From a phage: a DNA stretch of 64,000 nucleotides. This document shows, one piece after another, positions 11,003 through 31,532 of the stretch; position 1 is the first letter of the stretch, and every line of letters starts with the position of its first letter. The translations under genes and the position numbers were made by a program. A model generated the notes under the pieces. It had not been told where the DNA came from and did no database searches. It saw nothing but the letters and a program-made list of their open reading frames with translations. The DNA is taken from the sequence record PZ445134.1. One strand, given 5' to 3'.

Positions 11003-11203
11003 TTATTCGTAGAAGTCGGTAACTGTCCATGCGGAATTGCGATTAGACATTATTTTATTATACTCATCTTTAAAAGCAGATTTGAGCATTTGTTCAGTAA
11101 CAATATGTTCTTCACCTGAAAACGTATTGGTCAAAACATATTTTTTAATTTCAGGGACAACGAGAAGATGTTGGCCAGTTGAATACTCCATGTTGTTCTC
11201 CAT
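11003..11203 (-). CDS. hypothetical protein (45.2-like)
   Basis: 66 aa ORF, synteny with T4 45.2. Confidence 0.5.
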   Translation of the reverse strand: MENNMEYSTGQHLLVVPEIKKYVLTNTFSGEEHIVTEQMLKSAFKDEYNKIMSNRNSAWTVTDFYE

Positions 11204-11245
11204 TTAATTTGATGTGGTCATTATAACCACATCGTGTTAAAGCAT

Positions 11246-12934: not shown

Positions 12935-13185
12935 ATGTATTCTCTTCGAATGAAGTCCTCTACATATTTTAACATGTCATCTCTATCAGCAAAATATTCA
13001 TCTAGTTCTGCATACATAACAACACCTGGCGCGTACTCACAGGTAACATACATTGTTCCAAAGAAACGAGGAGTTGATTCCTCGTAATTCTCAGTCCATT
13101 CAACGACGCCAATATAACCGTCACCAATACTAAATTCATGACGATGGATTTCATAATCAGTCTTCGTCATTATACGCGTCCTCAA
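12931..13185 (-). CDS. hypothetical protein (46.1-like)
   Basis: 84 aa ORF overlapping gene 46 start; synteny. Confidence 0.5.
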   Translation of the reverse strand: MRTRIMTKTDYEIHRHEFSIGDGYIGVVEWTENYEESTPRFFGTMYVTCEYAPGVVMYAELDEYFADRDDMLKYVEDFIRREYI

Positions 13186-13414
13186 TACACGCTTCAGCCA
13201 TTTTAAGAATAGAGCCAGGAGTATCGTTGTCCATTATATTAAAGCTAAATTCAACAGCCCAGTCGGTGCAGACATGAACTGCTTTAACTTCATTACCTTC
13301 AACGCGTAATGGCTCAATCCAATACTTGATAGTGTTCTCGAATCCATCATCATCTTTAACGTCCATTTCAACTTCAAGCCTGAGTCCAGCATTGTTAAAT
13401 TCATCTAAAGTCAT
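13157..13414 (-). CDS. hypothetical protein (46.2-like)
   Basis: 85 aa acidic ORF; synteny. Confidence 0.5.
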   Translation of the reverse strand: MTLDEFNNAGLRLEVEMDVKDDDGFENTIKYWIEPLRVEGNEVKAVHVCTDWAVEFSFNIMDNDTPGSILKMAEACIEDAYNDED

Positions 13415-14430
13415 TGTGTTGCCTCAATATAAAGTTCGTTGGAATATTTGACCAGCGCTTCTCTGTCTTCGTCTGAGATATCTGGAATCGCGTCAATATA
13501 TTCTTTAATGATATCTTGAAGAGATTTAATCTCGATTTCCTGGTCGTCATCAGATTCAACACTGTTATCAACTTTAGAAACCATACGAAGAGAGTGAACT
13601 ACTTTTTCAAGTTCAGATTCAAACTTAGTCAACTCTGAATCAATTTCTGATACTATAACACGTACGGCTAGATTAGTATAATCAGAATAATTGATTTTGC
13701 CTTTAAACGGATAAGTGATTCGTCGATGCCATGTTGTTTCGTTAGGAATAAATTCCATACGTTCAACATCAGTGTCAAATACCCAAAATCCGCGCGGGTC
13801 GTTCTCATCACCTGCAGTAAGGGTCCATGGTGTCCCAATATATTTGACGTTAGCAGCTTCAGAGATTGTGTGGAAGTGGCCGGACCAGACTTGTTTATAG
13901 GTCTTTAAGAAATCAGGTTCAAGCCCATGAGACTTCATTCCTTTATAGAAATAAAAACCATTCAGTTCCCAGTGCCCAACACAATACGCTGCGGAAGAAG
14001 TCTTGATGTGCTCTAAGATTTCACCTGTATTTTCTTCGCACATCCATGGAACGATATCAATCAGACATCCGTCAAAATCTACAGTAGTTGGATGCTCGTA
14101 AATAGTAAAGTTTTCAAATTGAGTTAACAATTCAGAAACAGTGTTAGGTGTTATTGTATTCTTAAACGCCATGTCATGGTTTCCTATCGTGACATGAACG
14201 TGAATGCCTGCTTTAGAAATCATATCAACGATTTCACGATTGAATTCCATTGTACGATGTGTTATTGCTTTACGGACGTCAAACCAATCACCGTACTGAA
14301 TCCAAGTTTTAATCCCATGTTTCTTAGAGTATTCAATTGCTTGACGAATACCATCACGTTGAATATCTTGAACCCATGGGTCGTCTTGTTTGACTCCGAT
14401 ATGGAAGTCGCCTAAGTGCAAAATTTTCAT
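13411..14430 (-). CDS. 47: recombination endonuclease subunit gp47 (SbcD/Mre11-like phosphoesterase)
   Basis: 339 aa; MKILHLGDFHIG, GNHD, GHWELNGF calcineurin-like motifs. Confidence 0.92.
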   Translation of the reverse strand: MKILHLGDFHIGVKQDDPWVQDIQRDGIRQAIEYSKKHGIKTWIQYGDWFDVRKAITHRTMEFNREIVDMISKAGIHVHVTIGNHDMAFKNTITPNTVSELLTQFENFTIYEHPTTVDFDGCLIDIVPWMCEENTGEILEHIKTSSAAYCVGHWELNGFYFYKGMKSHGLEPDFLKTYKQVWSGHFHTISEAANVKYIGTPWTLTAGDENDPRGFWVFDTDVERMEFIPNETTWHRRITYPFKGKINYSDYTNLAVRVIVSEIDSELTKFESELEKVVHSLRMVSKVDNSVESDDDQEIEIKSLQDIIKEYIDAIPDISDEDREALVKYSNELYIEATQ

Positions 14431-14475
14431 ATTATTTCCTCATTAGTTAATTCATTCTATCATCCGCTTATAAAG

Positions 14476-14502
14476 CAAAAAAAAGGAACTCCGAAGAGTT
14501 CC
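14476..14502 (-). terminator. rho-independent terminator (minus strand)
   Basis: GGAACUC-UUCG-GAGUUCC hairpin followed by U8 on minus strand, between a small ORF and gene 47. Confidence 0.6.
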
Positions 14503-14504
14503 TA

Positions 14505-14675
14505 TCCACATAGTACACCATACAGAGGCTCATTTGAACTTTTAAATCGAATGGGCTTGTATGTAATAGTTCCTTCGGCTTTAGCTTTATCATAAGACTC
14601 TTTAAAACGCCTCATTCTTTCTGCTTTGCCTTTACGGATTTTATCGAAATTTTCAGAGGTCAGGTCGTTCGTCAT
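14505..14675 (-). CDS. small hypothetical protein (~56 aa), coordinates approximate
   Basis: Hand translation MTNDLTSENFDKIRKGKAERMRRFKESYDKAKAEGTITYKPIRFKSSNEPLYGVLCG; basic; immediately upstream of terminator. Confidence 0.3.
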
Positions 14676-14714
14676 GCATAATCACCTCTCAGAAAATACC
14701 TAAATCGATTTCTC

Positions 14715-14936
14715 TCATCGTTTCCACCATTTCTTAACTTGAAATGAGTCAACCCACACGAGTTGTTTTGGGTCGGCCCTTATAACAGGTGGACAAATTT
14801 CTGTAATAGAACTGTCGTGATATTCCTTTTCAGAGATTTTAACACAAAGAGGACCTCCCAATTTAAGGGTGAACCCTGCGTTCAGCTTAAGACGTTTAAA
14901 CTTTGTTTGAACTAGCGCCATTAATGATGTCCTCAA
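14715..14936 (-). CDS. hypothetical protein
   Basis: 73 aa ORF from track; overlaps upstream ORF by ~40 nt so start uncertain. Confidence 0.3.
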   Translation of the reverse strand: MRTSLMALVQTKFKRLKLNAGFTLKLGGPLCVKISEKEYHDSSITEICPPVIRADPKQLVWVDSFQVKKWWKR

Positions 14937-15219
14937 TAGCCTGACGAGTAGTAACCCACTGGATTTTAATTAACTTGTCATTATATGGTTGTCGTAGAAT
15001 ATCCCGAGATTTCTTAATAGCATATTCGTAAGCTTCGAAGTTGTTTTGAATTGCTGCTTCTTGAGCATGAGCATAAAGACGGTTTAGTTCAAAACGATTC
15101 TTTTTAAGAATCTTTTCGGATTTTTTACGTGCTTCAGCTTCATTTTTCTTTTGGATTTCTTGTAGCATTTTAGCTACTGCATCTTCTGCTTCTTTATTTT
15201 CAATAATCTCGGTAGTCAT
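14896..15219 (-). CDS. hypothetical protein
   Basis: 107 aa ORF, charged/coiled; occupies T4 alpha-gt/47.1 interval. Confidence 0.5.
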   Translation of the reverse strand: MTTEIIENKEAEDAVAKMLQEIQKKNEAEARKKSEKILKKNRFELNRLYAHAQEAAIQNNFEAYEYAIKKSRDILRQPYNDKLIKIQWVTTRQAIEDIINGASSNKV

Positions 15220-15220
15220 A

Positions 15221-15436
15221 TTATCTCATTAAATTAAAATAAAAACGTCCATCCTCTTCAATACAGAACTCATACTCAACCGGAGTCCCATTTATCGAAA
15301 ATGACACGTCATGTGGGTTCAAAGGGTCGATGTCAAAATTAATTTTAAATTCACGACCCAACAGTTTTACCAAATAAGGGATTGCTTCGTCAAAAGGTTC
15401 TTCTAAGTAGTTAGAGATGTCAATTGTCATCCTCAT
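15221..15436 (-). CDS. hypothetical protein
   Basis: ORF-track 97 aa ORF trimmed to internal ATG (MRMTIDIS...) to limit overlap with gp55. Confidence 0.4.
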
Positions 15437-15977
15437 ATAAAAAATCCAAACTAGGCGAATCGCTAACAACTTCCTTCTTTTCAGCCCCAGGAGCTTTATA
15501 AGCGGATTCTTCATAATGCGTCATTTTATCGTAGATGTCTTGAATAAACGTTTCATCTACCAACGCTACCATATCATCGTCATGACTGTCGTAGACGTTA
15601 TGAACGAAGTAACTATATTTCTTTGCAACTTCCTTACGTTCTTTTTTGATACGTTGGACAAAAGCATTAAAACAAGCTCGAGTTATGTATGCATGTGGGT
15701 TATTGTACTTAGTTTCGTCGAAATTATGAAGACCCTTAATAGAGGCTTCAATCCCATCTGCAATCATCTCCTGCTTCCAAGACTGGGTATATCCTGAAAA
15801 GTTGAAACGTTTGGACAGGCCTTCGGCGATAAGCATAATTGCTAAACCGATGGTATCATTCTGACGAATAATTTTGTTTGGGTCTTTATTATTTAAGAGC
15901 TCCTTTTTCCACTCGATTATAGCGGCGAGAAGCTCTTTATTATTCACATAGTTATTTTTAGGTTTTTGTTCAGTCAT
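15420..15977 (-). CDS. 55: late-transcription sigma factor gp55
   Basis: 185 aa; [35 protein letters not shown] matches my recall of T4 gp55. Confidence 0.9.
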
Positions 15978-16132
15978 AAGTACCTCTTAGCTCAATTCAT
16001 AGGTCTATTATATCATAATATTTAGAGACCTATCTTAAAGCACGAGATACTATCAAAGATACATAACTTTCATAAAGTTGTCGACTTAAAATTCACCAAA
16101 CTTTTATTCGGTTATAGTAATTCGAGATAGTT

Positions 16133-16360
16133 TCATTCTATTTCCTTTGCTGCAAATAAGGCAGCATCCAACGAATCAAATTGGTCAACGAAATCAATAT
16201 TCAATGCATCGTCATCCGTAGCATATAACCACCATTGTTTGAATTCGTATTCTAGAATAAATCCAGGACCTTCAATCTGAGGAAGACCTAGACTATTTGT
16301 ACTAACTTCATAACCAGCTAGACGCAGGTCATTAATCAAAGTTTCTGTTAATACGTTCAT
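16133..16360 (-). CDS. hypothetical protein
   Basis: 75 aa acidic ORF. Confidence 0.45.
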   Translation of the reverse strand: MNVLTETLINDLRLAGYEVSTNSLGLPQIEGPGFILEYEFKQWWLYATDDDALNIDFVDQFDSLDAALFAAKEIE

Positions 16361-16689
16361 TTTACCGCCTTAACAATTTTCAGGTCAACGAATTTTTTCT
16401 TACGTTGATTTTTCATACGACGGATAGTCTTTTCAGAGATTTCATGTTTCTGATAAGCTTTAGATTCAACACCAAATGCAGCAACGTCAAATTCAGAAAG
16501 AATATATTGTACTAGAATTTCACGAATAGAATTACGTCCAATTTTCTGGTCGTGTTTTTGCATGATTTCATAAAGACGGAATTCCCACGCGTCAAGAACT
16601 TGAGGAGTAACAATATTGCCGGATTCAAGAAGAGCAACAACTTTATCGAAAGCGAAAGAATTAACTACGTTTTTGATTTTAGTAGACAT
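16357..16689 (-). CDS. hypothetical protein
   Basis: Start moved to MSTKIKN because ORF-track start lies inside the early promoter at 16727..16755. Confidence 0.5.
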   Translation of the reverse strand: MSTKIKNVVNSFAFDKVVALLESGNIVTPQVLDAWEFRLYEIMQKHDQKIGRNSIREILVQYILSEFDVAAFGVESKAYQKHEISEKTIRRMKNQRKKKFVDLKIVKAVK

Positions 16690-16726
16690 ATTATTTTCCT
16701 CGGTTATTTTATTATCCAATGAGAGC

Positions 16727-16755
16727 ATTATACTCTGCTCTCAAGAGTTTGTAAA
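16727..16755 (-). promoter_or_regulatory. T4-type early promoter (minus strand)
   Basis: Minus strand TTTACA-17 nt-TATAAT; near-identical copy at 48038..48066. Confidence 0.55.
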
Positions 16756-16758
16756 TCG

Positions 16759-16971
16759 TTATCCGAACTTTTTAGCGCCTTTCCAGCCTTCGTACATAAC
16801 TGCACAAGTCAGTAATACAGCGTGCTGGCATTCTTTGTATTTGTAAATCCAGAACCAGCGTAAAAAGTCTTCATCCTCAACACCGTTGAGTTTCATGTTG
16901 GCAAAGAATTCGGCACGTTCTTCACGAAGTTGCCATGACACAATATTTTCAGGATTCATTTTGTGTTCCAC
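16759..16971 (-). CDS. hypothetical protein
   Basis: 70 aa ORF. Confidence 0.4.
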   Translation of the reverse strand: MEHKMNPENIVSWQLREERAEFFANMKLNGVEDEDFLRWFWIYKYKECQHAVLLTCAVMYEGWKGAKKFG

Positions 16972-17183
16972 GCCCCGTTTTCGTCGATGAACTTAATCCA
17001 GTCATTTACAGACCATTTAGTTGTGTCACCCTTTGGATTAACATTTAAAGTATATAATCCCTGCTTAAAAAGCATTCGTTTGATATTCATAATTTCCTCA
17101 ACTGTAACGATAACATTCGTTAGCTTTACGTTTGGCTTCAGTATGAGAAGTATTATAATCATAATCTTCTTTACTGTAAACAT
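16956..17183 (-). CDS. hypothetical protein
   Basis: 75 aa ORF. Confidence 0.4.
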   Translation of the reverse strand: MFTVKKIMIIILLILKPNVKLTNVIVTVEEIMNIKRMLFKQGLYTLNVNPKGDTTKWSVNDWIKFIDENGAWNTK

Positions 17184-17391
17184 CTTTTTTCAACTTACGA
17201 ACTTCTTTGCGGAGTTGTCGATTCATTTCGTTCTTGACTTCAGAATCAACGCCTTTCATACGTTTCCATTTATCCGAGCGGAAAATGTTTTCAACCATGT
17301 CTTTGTGGCTAACACCGTCAGGAGCTTTACGTTTACCAAAATAGTCGTAATCACGAACTTTCAAATCTTTACGACGATACGTTTTACCCAT
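17098..17391 (-). CDS. hypothetical basic protein
   Basis: Start at internal MGKTYRRK; Lys/Arg-rich. Confidence 0.4.
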   Translation of the reverse strand: MGKTYRRKDLKVRDYDYFGKRKAPDGVSHKDMVENIFRSDKWKRMKGVDSEVKNEMNRQLRKEVRKLKKDVYSKEDYDYNTSHTEAKRKANECYRYS

Positions 17392-17398
17392 AAGTACC

Positions 17399-17647
17399 TC
17401 AGAGGTTGATTGATACAATGCGTTTGATAAAATTCACTTCACTTACTGAAAGGTCTTTAAGACCGATTGATTCTAAACGCTGAGTAAGCGTCAACATCGG
17501 GATATAGTCCCAATGTGTTTTAGACGTTTGATAAGTACGGACGCCATTAGCAATTTCAACGTTCAAATCAGAAATGGTAATGAATACCAGACGTTCGTTG
17601 TTTACATTAAGAGTTAGAACAACTTTCTTCGAATTCAGACTAATCAT
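17399..17647 (-). CDS. hypothetical protein
   Basis: Start at internal ATG (MISLNSKK) with GAGGAA SD and upstream GTTTACA -35. Confidence 0.4.
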   Translation of the reverse strand: MISLNSKKVVLTLNVNNERLVFITISDLNVEIANGVRTYQTSKTHWDYIPMLTLTQRLESIGLKDLSVSEVNFIKRIVSINL

Positions 17648-17813
17648 TTTGTTTTCCTCTATAGTAGATGGTTTAATCTTAACACATCTATTGAGGATGT
17701 AAACTGTTTTATGAAAATATTTTCGATTTGAGAGGGGCACAAGGAGATAGTGAAGTGAAGATTCCAATTGGATTATATTAGAAATGAGATAAAGAAGACC
17801 AGGCGGCACCTGG

Positions 17814-18137
17814 TCAATCTTCTATGATATCAGAGTCATATCCTAATGAAATCAAGGACTTTTTAAACTCTGCAATATTCTTTTGTTTCTTATCATTTAA
17901 AAATATGACAGGATAACGAATATTAAGTGAAGTGAATCCTGCACGTTTAGCAAGAGATACGATTAAAGGACGGTCATATTCAATCTTACCATTATTAGTG
18001 AGGACTTTATAAAATGTATAAGGAGCATTGAGCTCCTTTAAAAGTTTTGTAACAGTATAACATCCTGGACAACGTCCTACTTCTTCAGGGATGCCATAGA
18101 TTTCAATCTTGTTCTTTAAGTTCGAGTTTTGTTCCAC
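17814..18137 (-). CDS. nrdH: glutaredoxin-like protein (NrdH-like), start uncertain
   Basis: IEIYGIPEEVGRCPGCYTV... CxxC redoxin motif; proposed GTG start at 18137 (AAGGA SD) because ORF-track N-terminal extension overlaps the upstream gene by 160 nt. Confidence 0.45.
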   Translation of the reverse strand: MEQNSNLKNKIEIYGIPEEVGRCPGCYTVTKLLKELNAPYTFYKVLTNNGKIEYDRPLIVSLAKRAGFTSLNIRYPVIFLNDKKQKNIAEFKKSLISLGYDSDIIED

Positions 18138-18420
18138 GAGAAATAATTCCTTGGTAAGCCCAATAAGGAGGATTAACAGAATCCTCGCCAGAGTTTTCTT
18201 CAGGAAAATAAACCTGGATAACAAATCCAGATTCATCAAAGGTAAAATAAACTGTAGGTAATTCACCTAACAATTCAGCACGATTATTAATTTCTTCGAG
18301 TTCTCGTTCACATCCAGCCCAAAAACTAGGATTTAAACTACATTCGTAAAAATAATAGTCATTACCGAACATATCAAAACCATTCCAACTCTCAACCACA
18401 TACCGCTCAAAACTAATCAT
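18103..18420 (-). CDS. hypothetical protein
   Basis: 105 aa acidic ORF. Confidence 0.5.
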   Translation of the reverse strand: MISFERYVVESWNGFDMFGNDYYFYECSLNPSFWAGCERELEEINNRAELLGELPTVYFTFDESGFVIQVYFPEENSGEDSVNPPYWAYQGIISRGTKLELKEQD

Positions 18421-18422
18421 AA

Positions 18423-18662
18423 TTAAGCCTTTTTATCAAGAACAGAATTCAGTTTATTAGTAATTTTGTCCAAACGTTCATTGAATTCGCTGGAGGATAA
18501 ACCCTTTTCAGGAGAAATTAAACTAATCACGAAAAATACAACAGTAAAAGGAATAAGAAAAATAGCTCCAACTGCCATAAACAAAAAGAACGTTACAGTT
18601 GTAAGAAAATCAGCTAAACCTTTACGAAATTTATACATATTTACCCTTAATTGATTAACCAA
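18423..18662 (-). CDS. small membrane protein
   Basis: 79 aa with a hydrophobic helix. Confidence 0.45.
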   Translation of the reverse strand: MVNQLRVNMYKFRKGLADFLTTVTFFLFMAVGAIFLIPFTVVFFVISLISPEKGLSSSEFNERLDKITNKLNSVLDKKA

Positions 18663-18752
18663 ACATTGATAAACACTAAACTATATTGCGAATAAAATTC
18701 TGGACCAAAACGAAAAATCATATCATTTATAGTATCCATAGTGTAATTCAAT

Positions 18753-19223
18753 TTAATCATGTTTCCACACCCCGTCGGTATTTGTCCAAAGTCGCTGATT
18801 ATCTGATCCTCGCCACAGTTTTTTGGTCGGAAGATTTTTCTCATACTTCCCATCAATAATAACATCAACATATTTAAGCATTTCTAGTTGTTTAATATCT
18901 TCAAACTTATATCCTGTCCACAACCAAATGCTTTTATTGGGATAAAGTTTTTTTACTGTTTGAACAATGCAATGAACAACATCTTGGTTATCAGGATAGA
19001 GAGGGTCTCCTCCAGTTATAGTTAATCCTTCTATATAATCGTTATTCAAACATTCAATTAATTGTTCCAGCGTTTCACCGGTGAATGGGATACCATTTCT
19101 AGCGTTCCATGTTGATTTATTATAACACCCCTCGCATTTATGCAAACAACCTGTAACGAAAAGAACGACCCTGCAACCGGGGCCATTCACAAAATCGCAA
19201 GGATAAAATCTATCATAATTCAT
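18753..19223 (-). CDS. nrdG: anaerobic ribonucleotide reductase activating protein NrdG (radical SAM)
   Basis: 156 aa; CLHKCEGC (Cx3Cx2C) near N-terminus; start overlaps nrdD stop. Confidence 0.9.
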   Translation of the reverse strand: MNYDRFYPCDFVNGPGCRVVLFVTGCLHKCEGCYNKSTWNARNGIPFTGETLEQLIECLNNDYIEGLTITGGDPLYPDNQDVVHCIVQTVKKLYPNKSIWLWTGYKFEDIKQLEMLKYVDVIIDGKYEKNLPTKKLWRGSDNQRLWTNTDGVWKHD

Positions 19224-20518
19224 TGGTGTTTAACCCTATGCATGATTTCTTTATTTTTGCCGAGATTAAATCCGCGTTCGTTCGGATTTCCAAGATAACC
19301 GCATGTTCTTCTTATTGTGTTCATCTTTTTAGGATCAGTTTCTCCGCAAACTGAACAAACAAATCCGTTTTCAGTAGGAGTCATTTCATGAGTACTTCCA
19401 CATGTAAAACATTTATCTACTGGCATATTAACACCAAAATAATCTAAATGTTGTGCAGCATAATCCCATACAGCCTCAAGACCTTTTAGGTTATTTTTCA
19501 TATCAGGAAGTTCAACATAAGAAATGTGACCACCAGTCGCAATGAAATGATATGGCGCTTCACGAGAAATCTTTTCAAACGGAGTAATATTTTCTTCTAC
19601 TGAAACGTGGAAACTATTAGTGTACCAGCCTTTATCAGTAACATCTTTTACACTTCCATATTTTTCGGTATCAAGTTTACAGAAGCGATAGCACAGGTTT
19701 TCAGCAGGAGTAGAATACAAGCTAAAAGCAAAACCGGTTCTTTCAGTCCACTGCTTAAGACGAGCATTCATTTTAGTCAAAATTTCCTGTCCAATATCAC
19801 GTCCGACAAGAATATTCAATTCGTGAATACCAATGTATCCTAAAGACACTGAACTTCTGCCGTTTTTAAATAACTCAATTATATCATCATCAGGTTTAAG
19901 ACGAACCCCAAATGCACCTTCTTGGTAAAGAATAGGAGCAACAGTAGCTTTAACTCCTTTTAAGGAACTAATTCTACACATCAAAGCTTCAAAACACAGA
20001 TCCATTCGTTCATTAAATAGCTCAACAAATTTCTGTTCATTGAATTGTGTTCCAATATAAGAATCTAACGCAATACGAGGAAGATTCAGTGTTACAACAC
20101 CAAGATTATTACGCCCATCAAGAATTTCATTACCAGTCGAATCTTTCCATACGCTCAAAAAACTACGGCAACCCATTGGAGAAACAGGAACAGATGAACC
20201 GGTGATAGCTTTATTATTCTTAACTGAAATAATATCAGGATACATTCTTTTGCTTGCACATTCTAACGCAAGCTGCTTAATATCATAGTTCGGGTCGTCT
20301 TTATAAAGATTAACACCCTCTTCAACGAACATAACAAGTTTAGGGAAAATAGGAGTTATCCCATCGCGACCAAGACCTTTAATACGATTTTTCAGAATTG
20401 CTTTCTGAATCATTCGTTCAGTCCAGTCAGTTCCCGTGCCAAATGTAATGGTTACAAAAGGCGTTTGTCCGTTTGAACTGAAAAGTGTATTTACTTCATC
20501 ATTATATTCAGCATGAGT
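19220..20518 (-). CDS. nrdD: anaerobic ribonucleoside-triphosphate reductase NrdD, exon 2
   Basis: C-terminal glycyl-radical motif RTCGYLG and Zn-ribbon CxxC pairs; 5' boundary is the inferred 3' splice site (approximate). Confidence 0.8.
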   Translation of the reverse strand, partial: THAEYNDEVNTLFSSNGQTPFVTITFGTGTDWTERMIQKAILKNRIKGLGRDGITPIFPKLVMFVEEGVNLYKDDPNYDIKQLALECASKRMYPDIISVKNNKAITGSSVPVSPMGCRSFLSVWKDSTGNEILDGRNNLGVVTLNLPRIALDSYIGTQFNEQKFVELFNERMDLCFEALMCRISSLKGVKATVAPILYQEGAFGVRLKPDDDIIELFKNGRSSVSLGYIGIHELNILVGRDIGQEILTKMNARLKQWTERTGFAFSLYSTPAENLCYRFCKLDTEKYGSVKDVTDKGWYTNSFHVSVEENITPFEKISREAPYHFIATGGHISYVELPDMKNNLKGLEAVWDYAAQHLDYFGVNMPVDKCFTCGSTHEMTPTENGFVCSVCGETDPKKMNTIRRTCGYLGNPNERGFNLGKNKEIMHRVKHQ

Positions 20519-21539
20519 CGCAAATTCATGCCCGTTTATATGAAACAACAAAATTTGGATAGTCCATAGATATGCAACGTTCTTTTATAGTGCTAGGATG
20601 AAAATTTAGCGCTTTAGCTGCTTCTATATAAGACGTATACTTAATACCGTCAACAACCACATATTCAGGAACTTTATGAATAGTAGTCTTAATACTCAAA
20701 ACAAGAGGATGAGTTTCGACTTCACTTTCAGTGCAATTTAAATATTCCGCTGCTTTTTTAAAACTTCTAAAAGTTTTATTTTTAAGCTTTATCGATACTT
20801 GTTTTTTACTTTTTCGACTATTGATATTATTTTGCACATGTTCCTTAGATCTTCTGTTTTTAGCATAATATTCAGCCACAGAAGATTTTATATTGTTTTT
20901 ATGAGATTCGGATAACACTTTACCCTTATGAGCATCTCTTAATTTTTGAATATGTTCTTCAGTATCCGGATGCTTATAAAACTTTTTACCGCCTATGGAT
21001 TTATTTAAACATTTTTTGCTATAAAAATATTTACGTATGACCTCTTCTTCATGTTTTAATGCATCTTTATAACTATCAAATGTTTTTAAAATTATCCATT
21101 TAGTAGGTGTATCAGTTTTTAAGCGTTCATTTATATACTTAGATGACGTTGTGTAAGTTTTCCAGTTTGTGGGCTTGTTTTTAATTGTTCTAAATTTTTT
21201 ATAACCGATATAAATGTCGCCATTAGAAAACTTAACTAAGTATGTAAATGCGTCTTTATCTTTTATTTTAGTACAACGTCTTTTTATCCATTTCATTGTT
21301 TCACCTCGTATTCATAAGATAATCTTATTTATACAAGATGACTGCTGCATGTCGCCATGCAGATTAGACTATATCTTCATCTTTCGATGCCGGCCGTTTC
21401 GAATAGCATTAGCTTCTATTCTACACCGCTACATTCATCACGGTTAGTCGTTAGGCATTTAGTTCAAAAGAACATTTAGCACGGGATTGTCTACTAGAGA
21501 GGTTCCCCGTTTAGACCGGTTTTACATGAGCCTGAATTA
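20519..21539 (-). mobile_element. group I self-splicing intron (T4 sunY/nrdD-type), boundaries approximate
   Basis: Minus-strand core elements in order: P-like UAAACGGGGAACC, Q-like AAUCCCGUGC, R-like AACGACUAA, S-like AAGAUAUAGUCU, and CUGCAUG-GCGA-CAUGCAG hairpin; in-frame UAA at intron start; ORF in 3' part. Confidence 0.7.
20526..21296 (-). CDS. intron-encoded GIY-YIG homing endonuclease (I-TevII-like)
   Basis: 256 aa; N-terminal FTYLVKFSNGDIYIGYKK GIY-YIG motif; NUMOD-like repeats and basic C-terminal DNA-binding region. Confidence 0.8.
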   Translation of the reverse strand: MKWIKRRCTKIKDKDAFTYLVKFSNGDIYIGYKKFRTIKNKPTNWKTYTTSSKYINERLKTDTPTKWIILKTFDSYKDALKHEEEVIRKYFYSKKCLNKSIGGKKFYKHPDTEEHIQKLRDAHKGKVLSESHKNNIKSSVAEYYAKNRRSKEHVQNNINSRKSKKQVSIKLKNKTFRSFKKAAEYLNCTESEVETHPLVLSIKTTIHKVPEYVVVDGIKYTSYIEAAKALNFHPSTIKERCISMDYPNFVVSYKRA

Positions 21540-22082
21540 AATTAACTCATACGCCTGGAATGCATCATATACGTCTTTTTCTGTTTTAGATTGGGCATAA
21601 TTCAACGCATCAGCGATTTGCCATTTTTCTGCATCCTCAATATGTTTTGCATAGGTGCGTTTAACATAAGGAGAAAGTACTTTGTCTACATTAGCAAAAG
21701 TCGTTCCGCCGTATTGATGGGAAGCAACCTGTGCGGTAATTTGTGCCATAATTGCAGTAGCAACACCAATCGATTTAGGCGTTTCAATTTGAGCATTGCC
21801 TAATTTAAATCCATTCTCAAGCATCCCCTTTAAATCGACTAAACAGCAATTAGTAAACGGAAGAGCAGGAGAATAATCAATATCATGCATGTGAATGATT
21901 CCGCTTTCATGCGCATGCATAATAAAAGACGGGACCATATTTTTGGCAATGTGCTTAGACACAATACCAGCCATAAGGTCCCGTTGAGTTGGAAAAACAC
22001 GAGAATCTTTATTAGCATTCTCGTTCAAAAGATCTTTATTAGTTTTATGAATTAATCCTTCAATTTCTTTTTCAATTTTCAT
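21540..22082 (-). CDS. nrdD: anaerobic ribonucleoside-triphosphate reductase NrdD, exon 1
   Basis: 181 aa N-terminal segment; ORF ends at a stop inside the intron; 3' boundary is the inferred 5' splice site. Confidence 0.8.
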
Positions 22083-22552
22083 TTTAAACTCTTTCTAAGC
22101 TGCTTTTTGAATGAAGCTATTAATTGTGTTTTGGTATCAGATTCATTATATTCAAATCCTCTTTGAAGCATCTCGGCCATCATTTCCTCTTTACCTAGTC
22201 TTGAGAACTCTTTAGTTTTGTCTGGAACAAAATTAGGATGGATATTATTATCAGAATAATCTTGTTTCAAATAAGCGAGAAGAGCTTCAAGCCATTCGAG
22301 GTAGTCGACATCACGTCCTTTAAGACCGGAACGGTTGAACTTATGCTTCATTTGACCTTCTGCTGCGTTGCACAGATTACAGAGTAATCCACGAACTCTA
22401 CCGGCTTTTGGCCCGTTTAATTCATGGTCGTGGTCAAGATGGTTACCTTGAACATCAGGGTCTAATTCACGGTGGCAAATAGGACACTTACCGTTCTGTG
22501 CATCATAAAATTTTTGTTTTTCTTCTTTATATTTTGCGCCTGATAATAACAT
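22079..22552 (-). CDS. 49: endonuclease VII (Holliday junction resolvase) gp49
   Basis: 157 aa; CPICHRELD...HLDHDHE zinc/His-Cys box as I recall for T4 endo VII. Confidence 0.9.
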   Translation of the reverse strand: MLLSGAKYKEEKQKFYDAQNGKCPICHRELDPDVQGNHLDHDHELNGPKAGRVRGLLCNLCNAAEGQMKHKFNRSGLKGRDVDYLEWLEALLAYLKQDYSDNNIHPNFVPDKTKEFSRLGKEEMMAEMLQRGFEYNESDTKTQLIASFKKQLRKSLK

Positions 22553-22587
22553 GATAAACCCTTACCTTAAATAGATAAGGGTATTTA

Positions 22588-23013
22588 TTAACTTAAACGT
22601 CTTTCTAAATATTCAATGTATTCTGCGGCTGCTTGCATCAGGTTACCTTCATAGCCGTCGTTATTTTCTTGTCCAGCTAATTTAGCTAATGCATAAGAAA
22701 TTCGTTCACCTTCGAATTCACCAAGTTTACTACCTAGCACATCCGCAATATCAGCCGAATCAATTTCTTCGAGTTCATCTATTGAATGGGATTCCCAGAA
22801 GCACCAAAGAGAAGTATCACGGTCATAGATGCAAAGTTTCTCACCTGTGTTCAACATCACTTCGATAATGCCATGGCCGCCATAACCATCTTCGGTAGTA
22901 GTACCAATTACCTTGATGATTGTTCCTTTCTTTAATTCAGGAAACTTGTCTTGTAGTTCTTCATCTTCTTTAACAATCTTGAACCATTTACCGCGAGTTT
23001 CAGAAATATTCAT
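22588..23013 (-). CDS. hypothetical protein
   Basis: 141 aa acidic ORF. Confidence 0.5.
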   Translation of the reverse strand: MNISETRGKWFKIVKEDEELQDKFPELKKGTIIKVIGTTTEDGYGGHGIIEVMLNTGEKLCIYDRDTSLWCFWESHSIDELEEIDSADIADVLGSKLGEFEGERISYALAKLAGQENNDGYEGNLMQAAAEYIEYLERRLS

Positions 23014-23014
23014 A

Positions 23015-23212
23015 TCAATATCCTCTATAAAAGTTGCGATGCGTGCGTTTCGCTTTGCGAAGCTGACGTTTAGTTGGTCGAACCGTAAATGGTCGTCCGG
23101 AGAAAAAATTTGGTTCGGTTTTAATCAACACATACCAATCGTGTTCGCCACTTTTTAATAAACGGTACAATAATTTAACTTGCATAATAATCTCTTCCCA
23201 TTTCCAAATCAA
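23015..23212 (-). CDS. hypothetical basic protein
   Basis: 65 aa ORF. Confidence 0.35.
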   Translation of the reverse strand: MIWKWEEIIMQVKLLYRLLKSGEHDWYVLIKTEPNFFSGRPFTVRPTKRQLRKAKRTHRNFYRGY

Positions 23213-23313
23213 TCATATCGTTTACTGTAGGTTCATCATAACACGTTTCTTCGTCGTTGTAAACTGTTTCGACGTCTGGCTCGACAGTTTCCCATCGAGC
23301 CGAATACCATGGT

Positions 23314-23649
23314 TTAACCCCGGAGTTTATTGAGCTCTTCATAATCAATCCAGGATTCTAGCCCTGACGGCAGGTCACATTCAATGTTCCACAGAAGCTC
23401 TTCGATGGCTTGTAGGCGATTATATTCTTCAACAGTAATAGTAACCATTGTTTCAGGCTTTTTAACCATCATGTCATTCATCAGAATGTACAGGTCTTCA
23501 CAAACAGCCGGGTCGTCCCATGTCCATATTTCAGCATCTCGAACCAATGAAGTCGGAATCGAATTTAAAACTTCAAGCTTAGTAGGAGCGTCAGGGCCGA
23601 GAAGAGTTGCTACAAATTTATACGCTCTGGCGAAATCAATATCATTCAT
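23314..23649 (-). CDS. hypothetical protein
   Basis: 111 aa acidic ORF. Confidence 0.5.
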   Translation of the reverse strand: MNDIDFARAYKFVATLLGPDAPTKLEVLNSIPTSLVRDAEIWTWDDPAVCEDLYILMNDMMVKKPETMVTITVEEYNRLQAIEELLWNIECDLPSGLESWIDYEELNKLRG

Positions 23650-23909
23650 TTAAAATATTCTCGCAGTTGGTCGAATCCACCAATGTGACTTCCGTCAGGA
23701 GCAAACACTTGAGGCATAGTCAATCCGACTTGTGATTCACGTCCAAGCTTAACCAGAAGCTCAGCAATTTTCTCATCATCAAAAACACCTTTTTCTGGCA
23801 TAACATTAATGAATTCAAATGGCTGTTTCTTAACAGTCAGCAATCGTTTCGCATTATCGCAATAAATGCATTTATGAATAGTAGAGTCATACCCGTACAC
23901 TTTAAACAT
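23646..23909 (-). CDS. nrdC: thioredoxin/glutaredoxin NrdC
   Basis: MFKVYGYDSTIHKCIYCDNAKRLLTVKKQPFEFINVMPEKG... matches my recall of T4 NrdC; start at internal ATG. Confidence 0.85.
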   Translation of the reverse strand: MFKVYGYDSTIHKCIYCDNAKRLLTVKKQPFEFINVMPEKGVFDDEKIAELLVKLGRESQVGLTMPQVFAPDGSHIGGFDQLREYFK

Positions 23910-24315
23910 TATTTTTCCTTTCATCAATTAAATATGCAATGCCAAATACAATACATGTAATAAAACCTGTGATACAGATAGAAACCAACAACACTGTACC
24001 AAAGAACCAAATCAAGTTATCTTTAGTAGTTTGTTTGATATCCATCTCACGAATTTCTATAGCTATCGTATCACCTTTATTAAGAAGCGTATAAAACGAT
24101 GGTGATACATGCCTGTCAAAAACTCGACCTTGTTCATCTTTATAAACTGCAATAAATTCCAGTTTAGAATATTTTCCTGTAGATTGACCTGAAATTAATT
24201 CCACTACCTCCACAGGAATTACTTTAGTTTCCATGTAAGTATTCTGGCTGTTCCAAATGAATGGAATGATGGCAAAAACTAAAGCTGTAATAAAACAACG
24301 AAGGCTATATCTCAT
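23902..24315 (-). CDS. membrane protein
   Basis: 137 aa with N- and C-terminal hydrophobic helices. Confidence 0.5.
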   Translation of the reverse strand: MRYSLRCFITALVFAIIPFIWNSQNTYMETKVIPVEVVELISGQSTGKYSKLEFIAVYKDEQGRVFDRHVSPSFYTLLNKGDTIAIEIREMDIKQTTKDNLIWFFGTVLLVSICITGFITCIVFGIAYLIDERKNNV

Positions 24316-24620
24316 TATAATGTTCTCTCAAATTTGTGGAAGCATTTACGGCATTTCAATTTCAAGTTATCAGTGGTCCAGTTAACCAGTTGGACTTGGA
24401 TAGTTCCACATTCCGGACATGGATGTTTTGCTGCCGATTTGGCAGCATTTTCACGTCGTTCAACCATTTTCATTATTTCGTTCCATGCCGGAGGAACGAA
24501 CTCTTCTTCACCGTGGATTTTATCTCGCTGAACAAATTCAATCTTTGAACTATCGTCGATAAACTTAACCAAGCTGTGATTAGTGCTCATGTCAATATCC
24601 TCTAAAAGACGTAGTTTCAT
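24315..24620 (-). CDS. hypothetical zinc-ribbon protein
   Basis: 101 aa; CPECG...CRKC. Confidence 0.45.
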   Translation of the reverse strand: MKLRLLEDIDMSTNHSLVKFIDDSSKIEFVQRDKIHGEEEFVPPAWNEIMKMVERRENAAKSAAKHPCPECGTIQVQLVNWTTDNLKLKCRKCFHKFERTL

Positions 24621-25570
24621 TATAAAACCTCAATGGCATTTCGTAAACCATCCGCTTTCGCATTCAGAGCTTTTAACGATTTAGTTTTTTCTGCAATCTG
24701 GGCTTCGACTTCTTTCAGTCGAGATTTGAGATATTCGCGTTCTTCTCTTAAATTATCAACTTTTTCTACTTTAGGTTCTTTAATAGGCTTAGGTTTATAC
24801 GTATTAGGGTTCTTCAGTTTAATTAGAATGTGTGAACTGTACAGCATTGAACCATTATCTTCGGTTTCGTCATACATTTCCACTACGTCCATCATCTCCA
24901 CCATCGTGCAGAGTTTATAAGACAACGAACGAATAGTTTTGTTGTGCTTATTAATTTCTTTAGAGTTCATGGTGCCTAGATTACGCGAGTAGTAATAAGG
25001 AACCTGGATATCAATTGTCAATGATGCGTTACCATTACCAGTTGGTTTGAATACTGCAGTAACCCAATCTTTAACATGAACTTTATTTGTACGACCATCG
25101 CCACCTGTGAATAATTTACGAGAATGTTTAAAAAGCATATTCACTTGGTTATTGAATTCACAAGCAAATTTATCAGCAAATTTAGTTTCAGGAATGGTAG
25201 ATAACCAATCAGCCAAGTAGGTCTTTTTAACATCGTTAACAATAGTAAATTCAACCAAATCGGTTATAGATGTCGCAGTTTTAATGAAGCTCGGCTTCAT
25301 AAAGTTTTTAATGTTATCGCGAGCTATAGTAGAAGATAATAAACGAGAACGTTTGAACCATTGAAGCAGTGTCCCTAATGAATGAGAATACGCATTCTGA
25401 GTATCTTTACAGATATGATTTTCTTGGCCTGTGTATGTACCAAAATCGCGAAGAATACCGCTTACTACAACTCGGTGTGGAACATCAAATCCTAATGAAC
25501 CAGAAGCACGTTGGGCATGAACGTTAGCGATAAGACCTGCAAAATAATCAACGTAATGTGAACGTGTCAT
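24620..25570 (-). CDS. hypothetical protein with C-terminal coiled coil
   Basis: 316 aa; own early promoter at 25599..25627. Confidence 0.6.
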   Translation of the reverse strand: MTRSHYVDYFAGLIANVHAQRASGSLGFDVPHRVVVSGILRDFGTYTGQENHICKDTQNAYSHSLGTLLQWFKRSRLLSSTIARDNIKNFMKPSFIKTATSITDLVEFTIVNDVKKTYLADWLSTIPETKFADKFACEFNNQVNMLFKHSRKLFTGGDGRTNKVHVKDWVTAVFKPTGNGNASLTIDIQVPYYYSRNLGTMNSKEINKHNKTIRSLSYKLCTMVEMMDVVEMYDETEDNGSMLYSSHILIKLKNPNTYKPKPIKEPKVEKVDNLREEREYLKSRLKEVEAQIAEKTKSLKALNAKADGLRNAIEVL

Positions 25571-25598
25571 AATATTTTCCTCTCGTTAAGATAGATTC

Positions 25599-25627
25599 AT
25601 TATACTCCAACCGTCCTTGGTTGTAAA
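25599..25627 (-). promoter_or_regulatory. T4-type early promoter (minus strand)
   Basis: GTTTACA-17 nt-TATAAT on minus strand. Confidence 0.5.
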
Positions 25628-25632
25628 CTGAT

Positions 25633-26565
25633 TTATGATTTTAATGCATTCATTGCGTTAAAAAGTTTAGAGTACTGCAACTGGAGCTTGGTAACTACTT
25701 GTTGAGCATCACGAAGCTTAGCTTGTGCTTTGTCAAGTTCAACAGACAGTTGGTCCACAGTGGCTTTGATTTGATTATAATAGTAATCTTCGGCAGGAAG
25801 AAGACCGTTAGAGATTTCCAGTTTAGTCGACGGTGTGCCGTTAAACATAACAGGTTGTGCTGAAGCTGCATTAATCTTACCGATAGTCGGGGCGACAATA
25901 ATTGACGCTTCGAACGTTGCATTTTCCTTTTTAAGATTTTTATAATATTCAGAGTCTTTGTGCCACCATGGCGCAGGAACCTTTTTACCAATAGATACAC
26001 GAGCCTGGATAGCGATATGGCCCTTATTCTTGATAACGTCGATAATATTAAGCTCACGAGAATAAATTGCTTTAATCTGGTGAATATTATCACCTAACAC
26101 TTCCAACGCTTGGTGGAATACACGAGCAACGTTATCATTCTTAGGTTTATACGTAAGAGTGAACTCATTCTCACTGATAACCATGATTTCTAACTTATCG
26201 TAAGTATATTTCAAATGTTTCATGTTAATTGCTTGAGGACGAATACGAGAAGCAATGGCCATCAAATTGTTAAGGTTATTCCGGAACTGCTTAGCGAAAT
26301 ATTGTCCTTCACCGCCAATACAAAAATTACGAAGTTTCTGTTTGGCTAATAAACGGCTGAACTCACCATTTTTAATGAACTCTTTAACAGGTGTGTTAGT
26401 AACGCATTCAAATTGAGTAAACTTACGAGAAGTAATCCCATAATATGAACAGATTTCCTCAATCTCTTCAGGGGTCTTTACAGGCATACGGATAGGATTA
26501 GGTCCTGGAGTATATGCGTTCGAGGTAAATTCTTTGATAAGTTCTCTACGTGTAATAAAAGCCAT
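25633..26565 (-). CDS. hypothetical protein with C-terminal coiled coil
   Basis: 310 aa; own promoter at ~26592..26620. Confidence 0.6.
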   Translation of the reverse strand: MAFITRRELIKEFTSNAYTPGPNPIRMPVKTPEEIEEICSYYGITSRKFTQFECVTNTPVKEFIKNGEFSRLLAKQKLRNFCIGGEGQYFAKQFRNNLNNLMAIASRIRPQAINMKHLKYTYDKLEIMVISENEFTLTYKPKNDNVARVFHQALEVLGDNIHQIKAIYSRELNIIDVIKNKGHIAIQARVSIGKKVPAPWWHKDSEYYKNLKKENATFEASIIVAPTIGKINAASAQPVMFNGTPSTKLEISNGLLPAEDYYYNQIKATVDQLSVELDKAQAKLRDAQQVVTKLQLQYSKLFNAMNALKS

Positions 26566-26620
26566 TTTATATTCCTCGTGTTGAAAAATTTATTATACTC
26601 CAACCATCCTTGGTTGTACA

Positions 26621-27616
26621 TCATTCCTTAAGAAGTTTTACTACTTGAATAAGATTAGCTCGTTCTGTTTTATTTTTACCATTTAAGCCTGCTAATCGTG
26701 AGATTTCATCGTCAGTCTGTTGAATAGTTACATTAAGTTCGTTAATCAAAGCTTCAAAGTATTTGATTTGCTCAGCATGTTTTGATTCAAATTTCTGAAC
26801 CGGAATAACGTCTTGGTTCAGTTCATCAATAAGGACTTTAAGAGCATCTTCTTGGTTGATATCGTATTCAATTTCTTTTATTTCTTCAACGAGCTCGTCT
26901 TTATATCTAACGTCTTTTAGTCCTGGTGCTGGTCCTGAAATCTCTTCTTTAAGAGTGCAAACATATCCAATACGGTATCCAATGCCGTCTCGCTTGATAT
27001 CAACTTCGTCAATAAATCCACAATGTTTAAGACCAGAGCCGATTATGTCAAAATATCCTTGACGTCGTCCTTCAAACGTTACACGAACTACTAAGACAGT
27101 TTTACCACCGACCTTTTGAAGCTCACATTTATAAAAGTTTGTTGAACCTGAATAACGTGGATGAGTTTTAAAGTTCATCTGACGATCTAGGCCCATTTGT
27201 AAGCGTGCTGATACGGCCATAAAACGTGTTTGGTTCTCGTTAAGATGAGCAACAATCCATTTCAAAGGCATTTTACACTGTTCACGACCGAACAAATCAG
27301 TACGTCCTAGATTACGCAGGATGTTGTTAGAGTTAATCATCGACAGAACGTTAAGTTTATTCAGCGCGCTGAAGATTCCATCGGCCATTGATTTTCCGTA
27401 ACCTTTACACGCTTTAATAAGCGCTCGCGGTAGATTAGTATAGATTTCAGACGGCATATGAAAATCAAATTTACTAGTCAGTAATTGATGAACTTGGATA
27501 GCAATTTGCTCATAATTAAGTGCTCTGCGATCATTATGATCTTTAAACCACACTTTAATCTGTGAAGCACATAAACCGTTAATTTCATGTTTTACCGCAT
27601 CAGATGTAATGCTCAT
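26621..27616 (-). CDS. hypothetical protein with C-terminal coiled coil
   Basis: 331 aa; promoter-like TTTACC/TATAAT upstream. Confidence 0.6.
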   Translation of the reverse strand: MSITSDAVKHEINGLCASQIKVWFKDHNDRRALNYEQIAIQVHQLLTSKFDFHMPSEIYTNLPRALIKACKGYGKSMADGIFSALNKLNVLSMINSNNILRNLGRTDLFGREQCKMPLKWIVAHLNENQTRFMAVSARLQMGLDRQMNFKTHPRYSGSTNFYKCELQKVGGKTVLVVRVTFEGRRQGYFDIIGSGLKHCGFIDEVDIKRDGIGYRIGYVCTLKEEISGPAPGLKDVRYKDELVEEIKEIEYDINQEDALKVLIDELNQDVIPVQKFESKHAEQIKYFEALINELNVTIQQTDDEISRLAGLNGKNKTERANLIQVVKLLKE

Positions 27617-27678
27617 ATCTATTTCCTCAGATTGAATTGGAACTCAAAACCATTATAACCCGTCCTTGGGTAAAGCGT

Positions 27679-28206
27679 TTATGCGTGAACCGTCTTTAAA
27701 CGTTCTTCAAATTTCCGAAGAGTACTAATACGTTCTGCTTTCTGTTTTGTATAGTTTGCAATACGTTCTGAAGTGAGAGCGTATCGTTCATTTACTGTTT
27801 CTTTCATGAAGTCAGGGATTTCACGAGAAGCTTTAATTTCATCAAACTTATCGAGTACTGCCTGGTCTTCAGCGATTAAATTTTCGTACATCTCGATATC
27901 TTTCTTGATAAACTCGATATCTTCCTGGGTTACTTTGGATAAACGAGATGCTTTATCCTTTTTGTACTGCTCGTTAGTTTCACGAGACCAGAATAATGTA
28001 CGTTTTTTGTTAGTGTTTTTGTAGACTTCCACAATTCCAACTGAATCGATGATAGCAATCCAATTCCAGCGAGATTTGAAAATCTGACCTCCATCCACGG
28101 TAATCTCGTTACCATAAGCAACGTCATTAAAGAACTTGCTTTGTGCTTCAGATTTAAATTTACCGTCGTTATAATTTACCAGGTTGAAAATATCTTTAGC
28201 GTTCAT
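27679..28206 (-). CDS. hypothetical protein
   Basis: 175 aa ORF. Confidence 0.55.
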   Translation of the reverse strand: MNAKDIFNLVNYNDGKFKSEAQSKFFNDVAYGNEITVDGGQIFKSRWNWIAIIDSVGIVEVYKNTNKKRTLFWSRETNEQYKKDKASRLSKVTQEDIEFIKKDIEMYENLIAEDQAVLDKFDEIKASREIPDFMKETVNERYALTSERIANYTKQKAERISTLRKFEERLKTVHA

Positions 28207-28264
28207 GTTTTACCTCCAGTAGTTGATAGGTCTATAATAACATAACCATAGACCTTGTAAACAA

Positions 28265-28552
28265 CTAAAAGAAACTTTTTTCGGTATTTTTTCCACTGAA
28301 CCAAACCGATTTCGGAATTTTCTGTAATTTTTCAGATTTAAGTTTCTCTTCCTGTTCTTTCTTATATGCATCCTTGTCGTACTGGAACAACTCTAAGGCA
28401 TTCTTTTGTAGACGGTCTAAGGTAATTAAGGCTTTAGTTTTTCCTTTCAAGGAAGAGTCCTGGCGAACCTCCTCGCTATATTGCATCGTAGAACTAACCA
28501 TACGATGAGCATACAGTTCGACTGCGGCTTTAATTTTTTGCATAAAATCCAT
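28265..28552 (-). CDS. hypothetical protein
   Basis: 95 aa Lys/Glu-rich ORF. Confidence 0.4.
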   Translation of the reverse strand: MDFMQKIKAAVELYAHRMVSSTMQYSEEVRQDSSLKGKTKALITLDRLQKNALELFQYDKDAYKKEQEEKLKSEKLQKIPKSVWFSGKNTEKSFF

Positions 28553-28690
28553 AACATAGCCTCTTTGATTTGTACAACATTATTTTTAAATATTTCTATG
28601 CCCTCAGTAGGTTCCTGGTGTCCTTCTTTGAGGTAAGCCATATGATTATTCATCTTTATGGCTTTTGTTACCTCAGAACTTCCTATAAGC

Positions 28691-29692: not shown

Positions 29693-29740
29693 TTCGTTTC
29701 GATAGGTTTATAATAACATGTTTAAAGCAAAAGTAAACAA

Positions 29741-29959
29741 TTATTTGCGACGAGATTTTTTGGTAAGAGGTTGAAAGAACACTGCTTTACCTGCAGGAGT
29801 CAAAGTAACTCGTAATGCATTACCGATTCCCAAGGATGCTTTAACAAGACCTTTAGATTTCAGTTCACCGAATGCTTGACGTTGGTCTGCATCACGAGTG
29901 TTAACCATAAGACCTTTATCACCAGCTTCACGAATCATTTCTAACATTTTGGTTTTCAT
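29741..29959 (-). CDS. hypothetical protein
   Basis: Start at internal ATG (MKTKMLEM) with GAGGAG SD. Confidence 0.45.
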   Translation of the reverse strand: MKTKMLEMIREAGDKGLMVNTRDADQRQAFGELKSKGLVKASLGIGNALRVTLTPAGKAVFFQPLTKKSRRK

Positions 29960-31523: not shown

Positions 31524-31532
31524 AATAATTCC

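Follow-up and report, generated by a model that had tools for sequence, protein, structure and literature searches.

The nrdD gene of the phage in sequence record PZ445134.1, of which a stretch of 64,000 nt (hereafter the window) was analysed, appears as two open reading frames (ORFs) with an ORF for a GIY-YIG homing endonuclease between them. This arrangement raises the question of whether nrdD has been broken into two genes or is one gene whose transcript is spliced. On the evidence given below, the insertion is very probably a mobile phage-type group I intron with extra P7.1 and P7.2 helices; it carries an endonuclease of the I-TevII family and occupies the site of the T4 sunY intron in nrdD. 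It is not a T4 allele: this intron, hereafter called W-type, is a diverged sister lineage, about 65% identical to the T4 intron, widely distributed and mostly annotated as a split gene in databases. The element is of a well-understood kind and does not overturn current understanding.

Reconstruction of the nrdD gene

A preliminary description made from the sequence alone had reported two nrdD ORFs about 1 kb apart, and both this distance and the length of 181 aa for the first ORF hold. The length of “~433 aa” given for the second was approximate: 443 aa are counted from its first TTG, and the true exon 2 comprises 425 aa plus a split tyrosine codon, covering positions 145-562 of the Pfam NRDD profile (from 20497) and Gly_radical. 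Joining 22082..21545 to 20499..19220 gives an exact in-frame NrdD of 605 aa with the junction QAYE-Y-EVNTLF, in which 599 of 605 residues are identical to T4 NrdD. The alignment of the joined exons with an intact protein, proposed as a check in the preliminary description, extends from residue 1 to 605 in a single stretch with the crystal-structure sequence PDB 1h78_A (the solved T4 NrdD). At the nucleotide level, the identity to T4 is 93.5% for exon 1 and 94.6% (gapless) for exon 2.

The interruption falls at the same nucleotide and codon phase as in T4 nrdD, after the first base of the Tyr180 codon; T4 nrdD is itself annotated (NC_000866) as a join of two pieces that enclose I-TevII. In the phages RB33, slur02, RB69, 310Ecol104PP and ATK47 the intronless nrdD is an uninterrupted gene of 1818 nt that encodes the same residues across the junction. 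The splice sites, initially put forward as inferred, are fixed by this agreement with T4, by the exact 605-aa join and by the 1818-nt intronless genes. The first intron triplet is UAA (21544..21542), as had been noticed, but exon 1 does not run straight into a stop, since this UAA is out of frame: the junction reads GAG U|UA AUU UAA, and the stop of the exon-1 ORF is made of intron nt 6-8 (21539..21537). An intein was rejected because translation running on from exon 1 would meet a stop after two codons of the intervening sequence, and because the endonuclease ORF begins at a start codon of its own.

Alternatively, a free-standing endonuclease gene might have split nrdD into fragments that are each translated on their own and then assemble with no splicing of RNA, as for NrdA of Aeromonas phage Aeh1, which is split by mobE. 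This is how GenBank records present the locus, with two nrdD coding sequences (CDS) and a homing endonuclease, and a split ribonucleotide reductase is already known (Friedrich et al. 2007, as cited in a passage of PMC3653736). Such a history is nevertheless extremely improbable here, because the split interrupts a codon and no in-frame ATG for exon 2 is present close to the junction; the sole start available in frame is a TTG located 17 codons upstream, which lies within the endonuclease ORF and lacks a purine-rich ribosome-binding site. Two further observations detailed below speak against separate translation, namely the complete covarying group I core lying exactly between the nrdD fragments and the exon position -2, which tracks the presence of the intron as P1 pairing needs.

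The group I core and its covariation

In a scan of 20400..21700, the Rfam model RF00028 (Intron_gpI) matched 21576..21345 on the minus strand with 71.8 bits (E 6e-18) over all 253 model positions, above its gathering score of 50 bits; the T4 nrdD intron, used as a positive control for the same model, scored 105 bits. The covariance-model scan suggested in the preliminary description was therefore positive, and the group I core and GNRA hairpin which it had placed right after exon 1 are confirmed by this match and by the loops of P8 (GAAA) and P9 (GCGA). The minimum free energy (MFE) fold of the first 270 nt contains P3, P4, P6a, P7.1, P7.2, P8, P9 and a hairpin over the ribosome-binding site of the endonuclease (z = -3.35). 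The core is completed by intron nt 200, the ORF occupies nt 249-1019 and the 3' splice site lies at nt 1045. The likeness to the layout of T4 sunY with I-TevII, pointed out in the preliminary description, is borne out by the position of P1-P9 within the first 200 nt, by the shared site and by the 56% identity of the endonuclease to I-TevII.

The structure was further examined in two sets of introns, with pairing partners moved by 1-3 columns as controls. The seven-intron alignment, with a hand-drawn structure, combined the ORF-deleted intron of the window with those of T4 nrdD and RB9 td, the nrdD introns of PD114, VB-EcoM-WM and Vibrio phage F96, and the Aeromonas 2L372X terminase intron. Standard pairs were formed at 93% of its pair positions, compared with 37-42% in the shifted controls, and 28 of the 58 pairs had changed on both sides. 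In the four lineages that share the Tyr180 site (T4-type, W-type and two metagenomic ones), 96.9% of positions were paired, compared with 32-39% in the controls, and 16/48 pairs had changed on both sides; the four-lineage count leaves out P6a and P8, and A2 leaves out P9.2 (MAFFT register off). None of 500 shuffles reached the observed values in the seven-intron and four-lineage sets.

Compensatory changes support P1, P3, P4, P7, P7.1, P7.2, P9, P9.0 and P9.2. In the four lineages P1 is 100% paired, its U.G pair at the splice site is invariant, and one A-U to U-A exchange affects exon and guide together (AUGAGU/GCUCAU and UUGAGU/GCUCAA). P7.1 and P7.2 are 90-97% paired, with changes on both sides in 3/5 pairs of the former and 4-5 of the 6 pairs of the latter, while P9.2 is kept by compensatory changes throughout the seven phage introns (5/6 pairs changed on both sides). 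Even the two-base P9.0 co-varies, being AU:AU in three lineages and AA:UU in T4. P9.0 was reportedly first defined on the sunY intron itself, by Michel et al. in 1990. A P10 pairing between exon UGAA and intron UUCA can be drawn as well; it is 81% paired in the four lineages and, the exon being invariant, does not co-vary. The subgroup is presumably IA2, in keeping with the T4 annotation “group 1A intron”.

We suppose that splicing would start with the pairing of the exon-1 end UAUGAGU with the guide GCUCAUG as P1, which places a U.G pair at the splice site, and that the P3-P9 core in the first 200 nt would bind guanosine and cut after U21545. The remote 3' end would be brought in by P9.2, by the two-base P9.0 (AU of J7/9 with the AU next to the terminal G) and by P10. 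Exon ligation would then yield ...QAYE-Y-EVNTLF... within the 605-aa NrdD, and the predicted spliced RNA reads ...UAUGAGU-AUGAAGUA... at the junction, that is, ...GCGUAUGAGU joined to AUGAAGUAAAUA....

Several points weigh against the interpretation as a mobile, T4-like intron. The Rfam cmscan of the whole 64-kb window, with gathering and E-value thresholds, reported two tRNAs only and left the intron out. In T4 the ORF is flanked by the pairing CUGUUUAU/AUAAACGG (-7.1 kcal/mol), which the W-type intron lacks, and the 3' docking may therefore differ in part from that of T4. Mapping of the GIY-YIG motif in the endonuclease is limited to Y19, Y29, G31 and E83. Finally, splicing, endonuclease activity and the target site are deduced from homology, covariation and population pattern.

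The first of these points is due to the speed filters of the whole-window scan, since the targeted 1.3-kb scan was well over the threshold. The whole-window blank was rejected as proof of absence on the strength of the 71.8 bits. Had such scans stood alone, the lack of a covariance-model hit, named in the preliminary description as grounds for dropping the intron, would have led to a false refutation, and whole-genome Rfam scans can overlook phage introns of this type. The two tRNAs, tRNA-Arg(TCT) and tRNA-Met(CAT), are adjacent at 49817..49973 (minus strand) and are the sole RNA-family matches in the window besides the intron.

The features of the locus are collected in Table 1. nrdD is on the minus strand in the gene order 49-nrdD-nrdG, as in T4, and its neighbours are assigned by Pfam as NrdG (18753..19223) and endonuclease VII (22079..22552). 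The nrdG start overlaps the nrdD stop (19220..19223), with no insertion between the two genes. In T4, mobC adjoins nrdD, and in HY03 the homing endonuclease gene segH lies between nrdD and nrdG; the window has neither.

Table 1. Positions of the exons, the intron and its parts at the nrdD locus of the window
Feature	Position	Strand	Remarks
Exon-1 ORF	21537..22082	-	181 aa; ORF listing; Pfam NRDD profile positions 1-141
nrdD exon 1	21545..22082	-	538 nt, as in T4 nrdD; 179 codons and first base of Tyr180; Pfam NRDD 4e-40
ORF holding exon 2	19220..20551	-	443 aa counted from first TTG
nrdD exon 2	19220..20499	-	1280 nt including stop codon, as in T4 nrdD; Pfam NRDD 5e-123 and Gly_radical
Group I intron	20500..21544	-	1045 nt (T4: 1033 nt); alignment with T4 nrdD (NC_000866)
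Intron ends	20500 (terminal G)		starts UAAUUUAAUUC; finishes ...AUAUAAUG
P1 5' strand UAUGAGU	21551..21545	-	last 7 nt of exon 1; 5' splice site after U at 21545
Ribozyme core	21345..21544	-	intron nt 1-200; RF00028, MFE fold, covariation
Guide sequence GCUCAUG	21531..21525	-	in ribozyme core
P3	21519..21514 / 21395..21390	-	
P4	21510..21505 / 21486..21481	-	
P6a	21473..21470 / 21465..21462	-	
P7	21449..21445 / 21371..21367	-	
P7.1	21444..21440 / 21429..21425	-	ACCGU/GCGGU
P7.2	21421..21416 / 21406..21401	-	GAAUAG/CUAUUC
P8 with GAAA loop	21389..21378	-	GNRA loop at 21385..21382
J7/9 AU (P9.0 5' strand)	21364..21363	-	
P9 with GCGA (GNRA) loop	21362..21345	-	
Spacer between P9 and ORF, putatively regulatory	21297..21344	-	sequence reading and MFE fold
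Putative late promoter TATAAATA	21333..21326	-	consensus read from sequence
Shine-Dalgarno GAGGUGA	21307..21301	-	read from sequence
Hairpin UCAUCUUGUAU/AUACGAGGUGA	in spacer 21297..21344	-	predicted to sequester the Shine-Dalgarno; MFE fold
Endonuclease ORF	20526..21296	-	256 aa; intron nt 249-1019
3'-terminal intron domain	20500..20531	-	P9.2, then CUGAAUAUA, AU, terminal G
P9.2 hairpin GCAUGA-AUUUGCGAC-UCAUGC	20531..20511	-	5' strand includes ORF stop codon
P9.0 3' strand AU	20502..20501	-	followed by terminal G 20500
P10 candidate	20498..20495 / 21536..21533	-	exon-2 UGAA (within first bases AUGAA) with intron UUCA

The endonuclease and the spread of the intron

The 256-aa GIY-YIG ORF was correctly recognised from the outset, except that it does not end “a few nt” before exon 2: its stop ends 26 nt upstream. 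The product is identical to I-TevII in 144 of 257 positions (56%) over the full length with 2 gaps (E 2e-101), and both proteins match the same PHROG 314. The GIY-YIG domain is N-terminal, with NUMOD1-type DNA-binding modules towards the C-terminus; the protein passes the Pfam SegE_GIY-YIG cutoff, a NUMOD1 module was found, and the catalytic domain is supported by the sequence profile and by a confidently predicted fold. Y19, Y29, G31 and E83 are invariant in an alignment of eight sequences of the family.

The region ahead of the ORF appears to be regulatory. We take TATAAATA to be the T4 late-promoter consensus, and its position together with a hairpin that buries the Shine-Dalgarno sequence is consistent with control of the endonuclease by this promoter and hairpin. 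The endonuclease would probably be expressed late from this promoter of its own, since the ribosome-binding site is expected to be hairpin-buried in longer transcripts. The same promoter-in-hairpin layout has been described for I-TevII in T4 (PMC2988022).

Two additional features of this region were noted. The ribosome-binding site and start region (21284..21304) can form a helix of about 20 bp with 20540..20561, the last 22 nt of the coding sequence; at -20.5 kcal/mol (z -5.1) this is by far its best partner in the intron, and the same helix in T4 reaches -16.3 kcal/mol (z -3.5). It was not found in the two metagenomic lineages and both its strands are coding, which is why we do not claim it as a conserved structure; the ORF could be looped out and its start masked by this helix, which might otherwise be a by-product of shared coding sequence. 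Of the 22 positions of the pre-ORF sequence TATCTTATGAATACGAGGTGAA (21300..21321), 17 agree with the intronless target in nrdD, and the register is that of the corresponding T4 likeness, which reaches 15/22. To us this recalls the proposed I-TevII operator, although the likeness is too weak to be claimed: 7 of 200 shuffles were as good as the 17/22 seen here, and 159/200 as good as the 15/22 of T4.

A further possibility to be weighed is that the intron splices while its endonuclease and homing are defunct, leaving a stranded passenger such as the T4 nrdB intron with its truncated I-TevIII. Inactive intron endonucleases are indeed known in T4 (PMC2790892, PMC1865063), and the activity of the W-type enzyme is itself a prediction. 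We regard this as very improbable, because the ORF is full length (258 aa in T4) without frameshift or internal stop, the catalytic-motif residues are conserved in a confidently predicted fold, and a near-identical intron found over two genera with divergent exons and a common exon tract points to recent active spread.

The population pattern behind the last argument is as follows. The identity of the window's W-type intron is 100% with HY03, 99.8% with JK45 (both Tequatrovirus) and 99.6% with SQ17 (Mosigvirus), while the exons of these phages are 92-98% identical to the window. Over 8000..32000 (24 kb), the best long match of the window is SQ17 (96.7%), though the window shares its intron, at 100% identity, with HY03; in this stretch SQ17 has about 1.3 kb of extra DNA, and SQ17 is annotated with a MobE-like gene between the two endonuclease-subunit genes. 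The W-type is present in approximately 62 GenBank phage records and the T4 type in approximately 24 (records covering at least 80% of a query made of the 3' half of I-TevII and 465 nt of exon 2), while most of about 1000 related genomes are intronless.

Six synonymous exon markers (-11G, -8G, -2G, +14A, +17T and +20C) are common to all four W-type alleles examined and missing from the five intronless ones, which share an identical 54-bp target (CCAAGCTTATGAAT|ATGAAGTAAATACTCTCTTTAG around the insertion site). At position -2, G occurs in 7/7 intron-bearing alleles from the four lineages and A in 5/5 intronless alleles; G is needed there for a Watson-Crick pair with the guide C in P1. A near-identical intron over diverged exons, together with flanking markers, is the pattern expected of homing with co-conversion. 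We suppose that the endonuclease would cleave the intronless nrdD of co-infecting phages and that repair from the intron copy would spread the intron with a short flanking exon tract. I-TevII is reported to cut 13-15 nt into exon 2 (Bell-Pedersen et al., 1990), so that +14 and +17 would lie at or near the cleavage site.

A word-indexed protein search returned only two 90% clusters, the W-type endonuclease (64 members) and T4 I-TevII. An exhaustive HMMER search (E<=1e-30) added just two further full-length relatives, P0003 and P0004, each 38% identical and with no closer match among cultured phages. Both are encoded on short (<2.2 kb) metagenomic contigs, immediately downstream of a first nrdD exon and a group I core, the two cores scoring 65.9 and 81.5 bits. 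Their introns, of 1078 and 1095 nt (L015:445-1522 and L018:888-1982), interrupt the same codon position of a far more divergent nrdD.

A tentative and on balance doubtful extension of these data is that the Tyr180 site hosts an old, diversified intron/endonuclease family of at least four lineages (T4-type, W-type and the two metagenomic ones) that are rivals for one target. Their cores would be natural mosaics of phage-intron segments (nt 30-71 identical to td, nt 85-124 to an intron at the second nrdD site, see below), and the synonymous changes at +14, +17 and +20, near the reported I-TevII cut, would reflect diverged cleavage preference or immunity. If so, one lineage could displace another.

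About 60 deposited phage genomes give the locus as two nrdD genes and a product named “homing endonuclease” or “hypothetical protein”; the features returned included neither an intron nor a joined CDS. The exact splice coordinates permit correct annotation. We found no description of the diverged W-type lineage in the literature searched, although an earlier one may exist. P9.0 and the selection of a remote 3' splice site were elucidated in the T4 nrdD intron, and a sister lineage at about 65% identity with two remoter ones provides natural covariation for those long-range contacts. In addition, the W-type supplies a second I-TevII-family enzyme for the same conserved 54-bp target, which is useful for studying the evolution of endonuclease specificity and intron competition.

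Comparison with T4 and other known systems

The closest known system is the sunY intron of T4 nrdD. Both introns share the site and codon phase, the guide GCUCAUG, the lack of P2, a core complete ahead of the ORF, an ORF in the 3' domain between P9 and P9.2, the terminal CUGAA...G tail, the TATAAATA promoter with the Shine-Dalgarno-burying hairpin, and an endonuclease colinear over its full length; in both lineages the 3' splice site lies about 800 nt from the core and is predicted to dock through P9.0. With the same gene, site and layout, and with an NrdD 99% identical to that of T4, the window might be taken for T4 itself or a trivial variant carrying the canonical I-TevII intron.

This is refuted by the identities of the intron and the endonuclease. 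Compared with exons at about 94%, the identity to T4 is 71% in the core, 54% in the spacer, 63% in the ORF and 62% in the 3' tail, and 56% for the endonuclease protein compared with 99% for NrdD. The W-type intron is 12 nt longer, and its P8, P6a, P7.1, P7.2 and P9.2 all differ in sequence from T4: the P8 stem, for example, has 4 bp and a GAAA loop, whereas that of T4 has 6 bp. The W-type has P9.0 as AU:AU and not AA:UU, its own synonymous exon markers and no CUGUUUAU/AUAAACGG pairing. The best 24-kb genome match is a Mosigvirus.

The td intron of T-even phages with I-TevI belongs to the same phage group I class with P7.1/P7.2 and likewise carries a GIY-YIG endonuclease, but it resides in another host gene, has its ORF in the P6 loop and possesses P2; I-TevI has no detectable sequence similarity to the W-type endonuclease. 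Nucleotides 30-71 of the W-type intron (21474..21515; P3 3' end, P4-P5 and P6 start) are matched by the td intron of RB9/T6/TuIa at all 42 positions, compared with 32/42 for T4 nrdD, while outside this segment the td core is 41-76% identical, the lowest value being where td is misaligned. In the same manner, nt 85-124 (21421..21460) are an exact 40-nt match to the VB-EcoM-WM nrdD intron, which occupies a different site. This mosaic suggests segment exchange between phage introns, to which conservation of the core could contribute.

The nrdD introns of PD114 (Justusliebigvirus), VB-EcoM-WM and Vibrio phage F96 have a related core, the same P9.2 loop motif and the same tail. They differ in being inserted at ...SMG|CRSF..., adjoining the active-site Cys, and either lack an ORF or have one for an HNH endonuclease in the P6 loop. 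These second-site introns of unrelated myoviruses lie at L004:599-1351, L007:1499-1768 and L006 (about 1375-2187), and in PD114 both nrdD halves are annotated as hypothetical proteins. Finally, nrdA/mobE of Aeh1 resembles the present locus in that the annotation shows an endonuclease gene separating two ORFs of a ribonucleotide reductase gene; unlike Aeh1 nrdA, the window has a complete intron of the self-splicing type around the endonuclease gene and a second nrdD piece without a translation start of its own.

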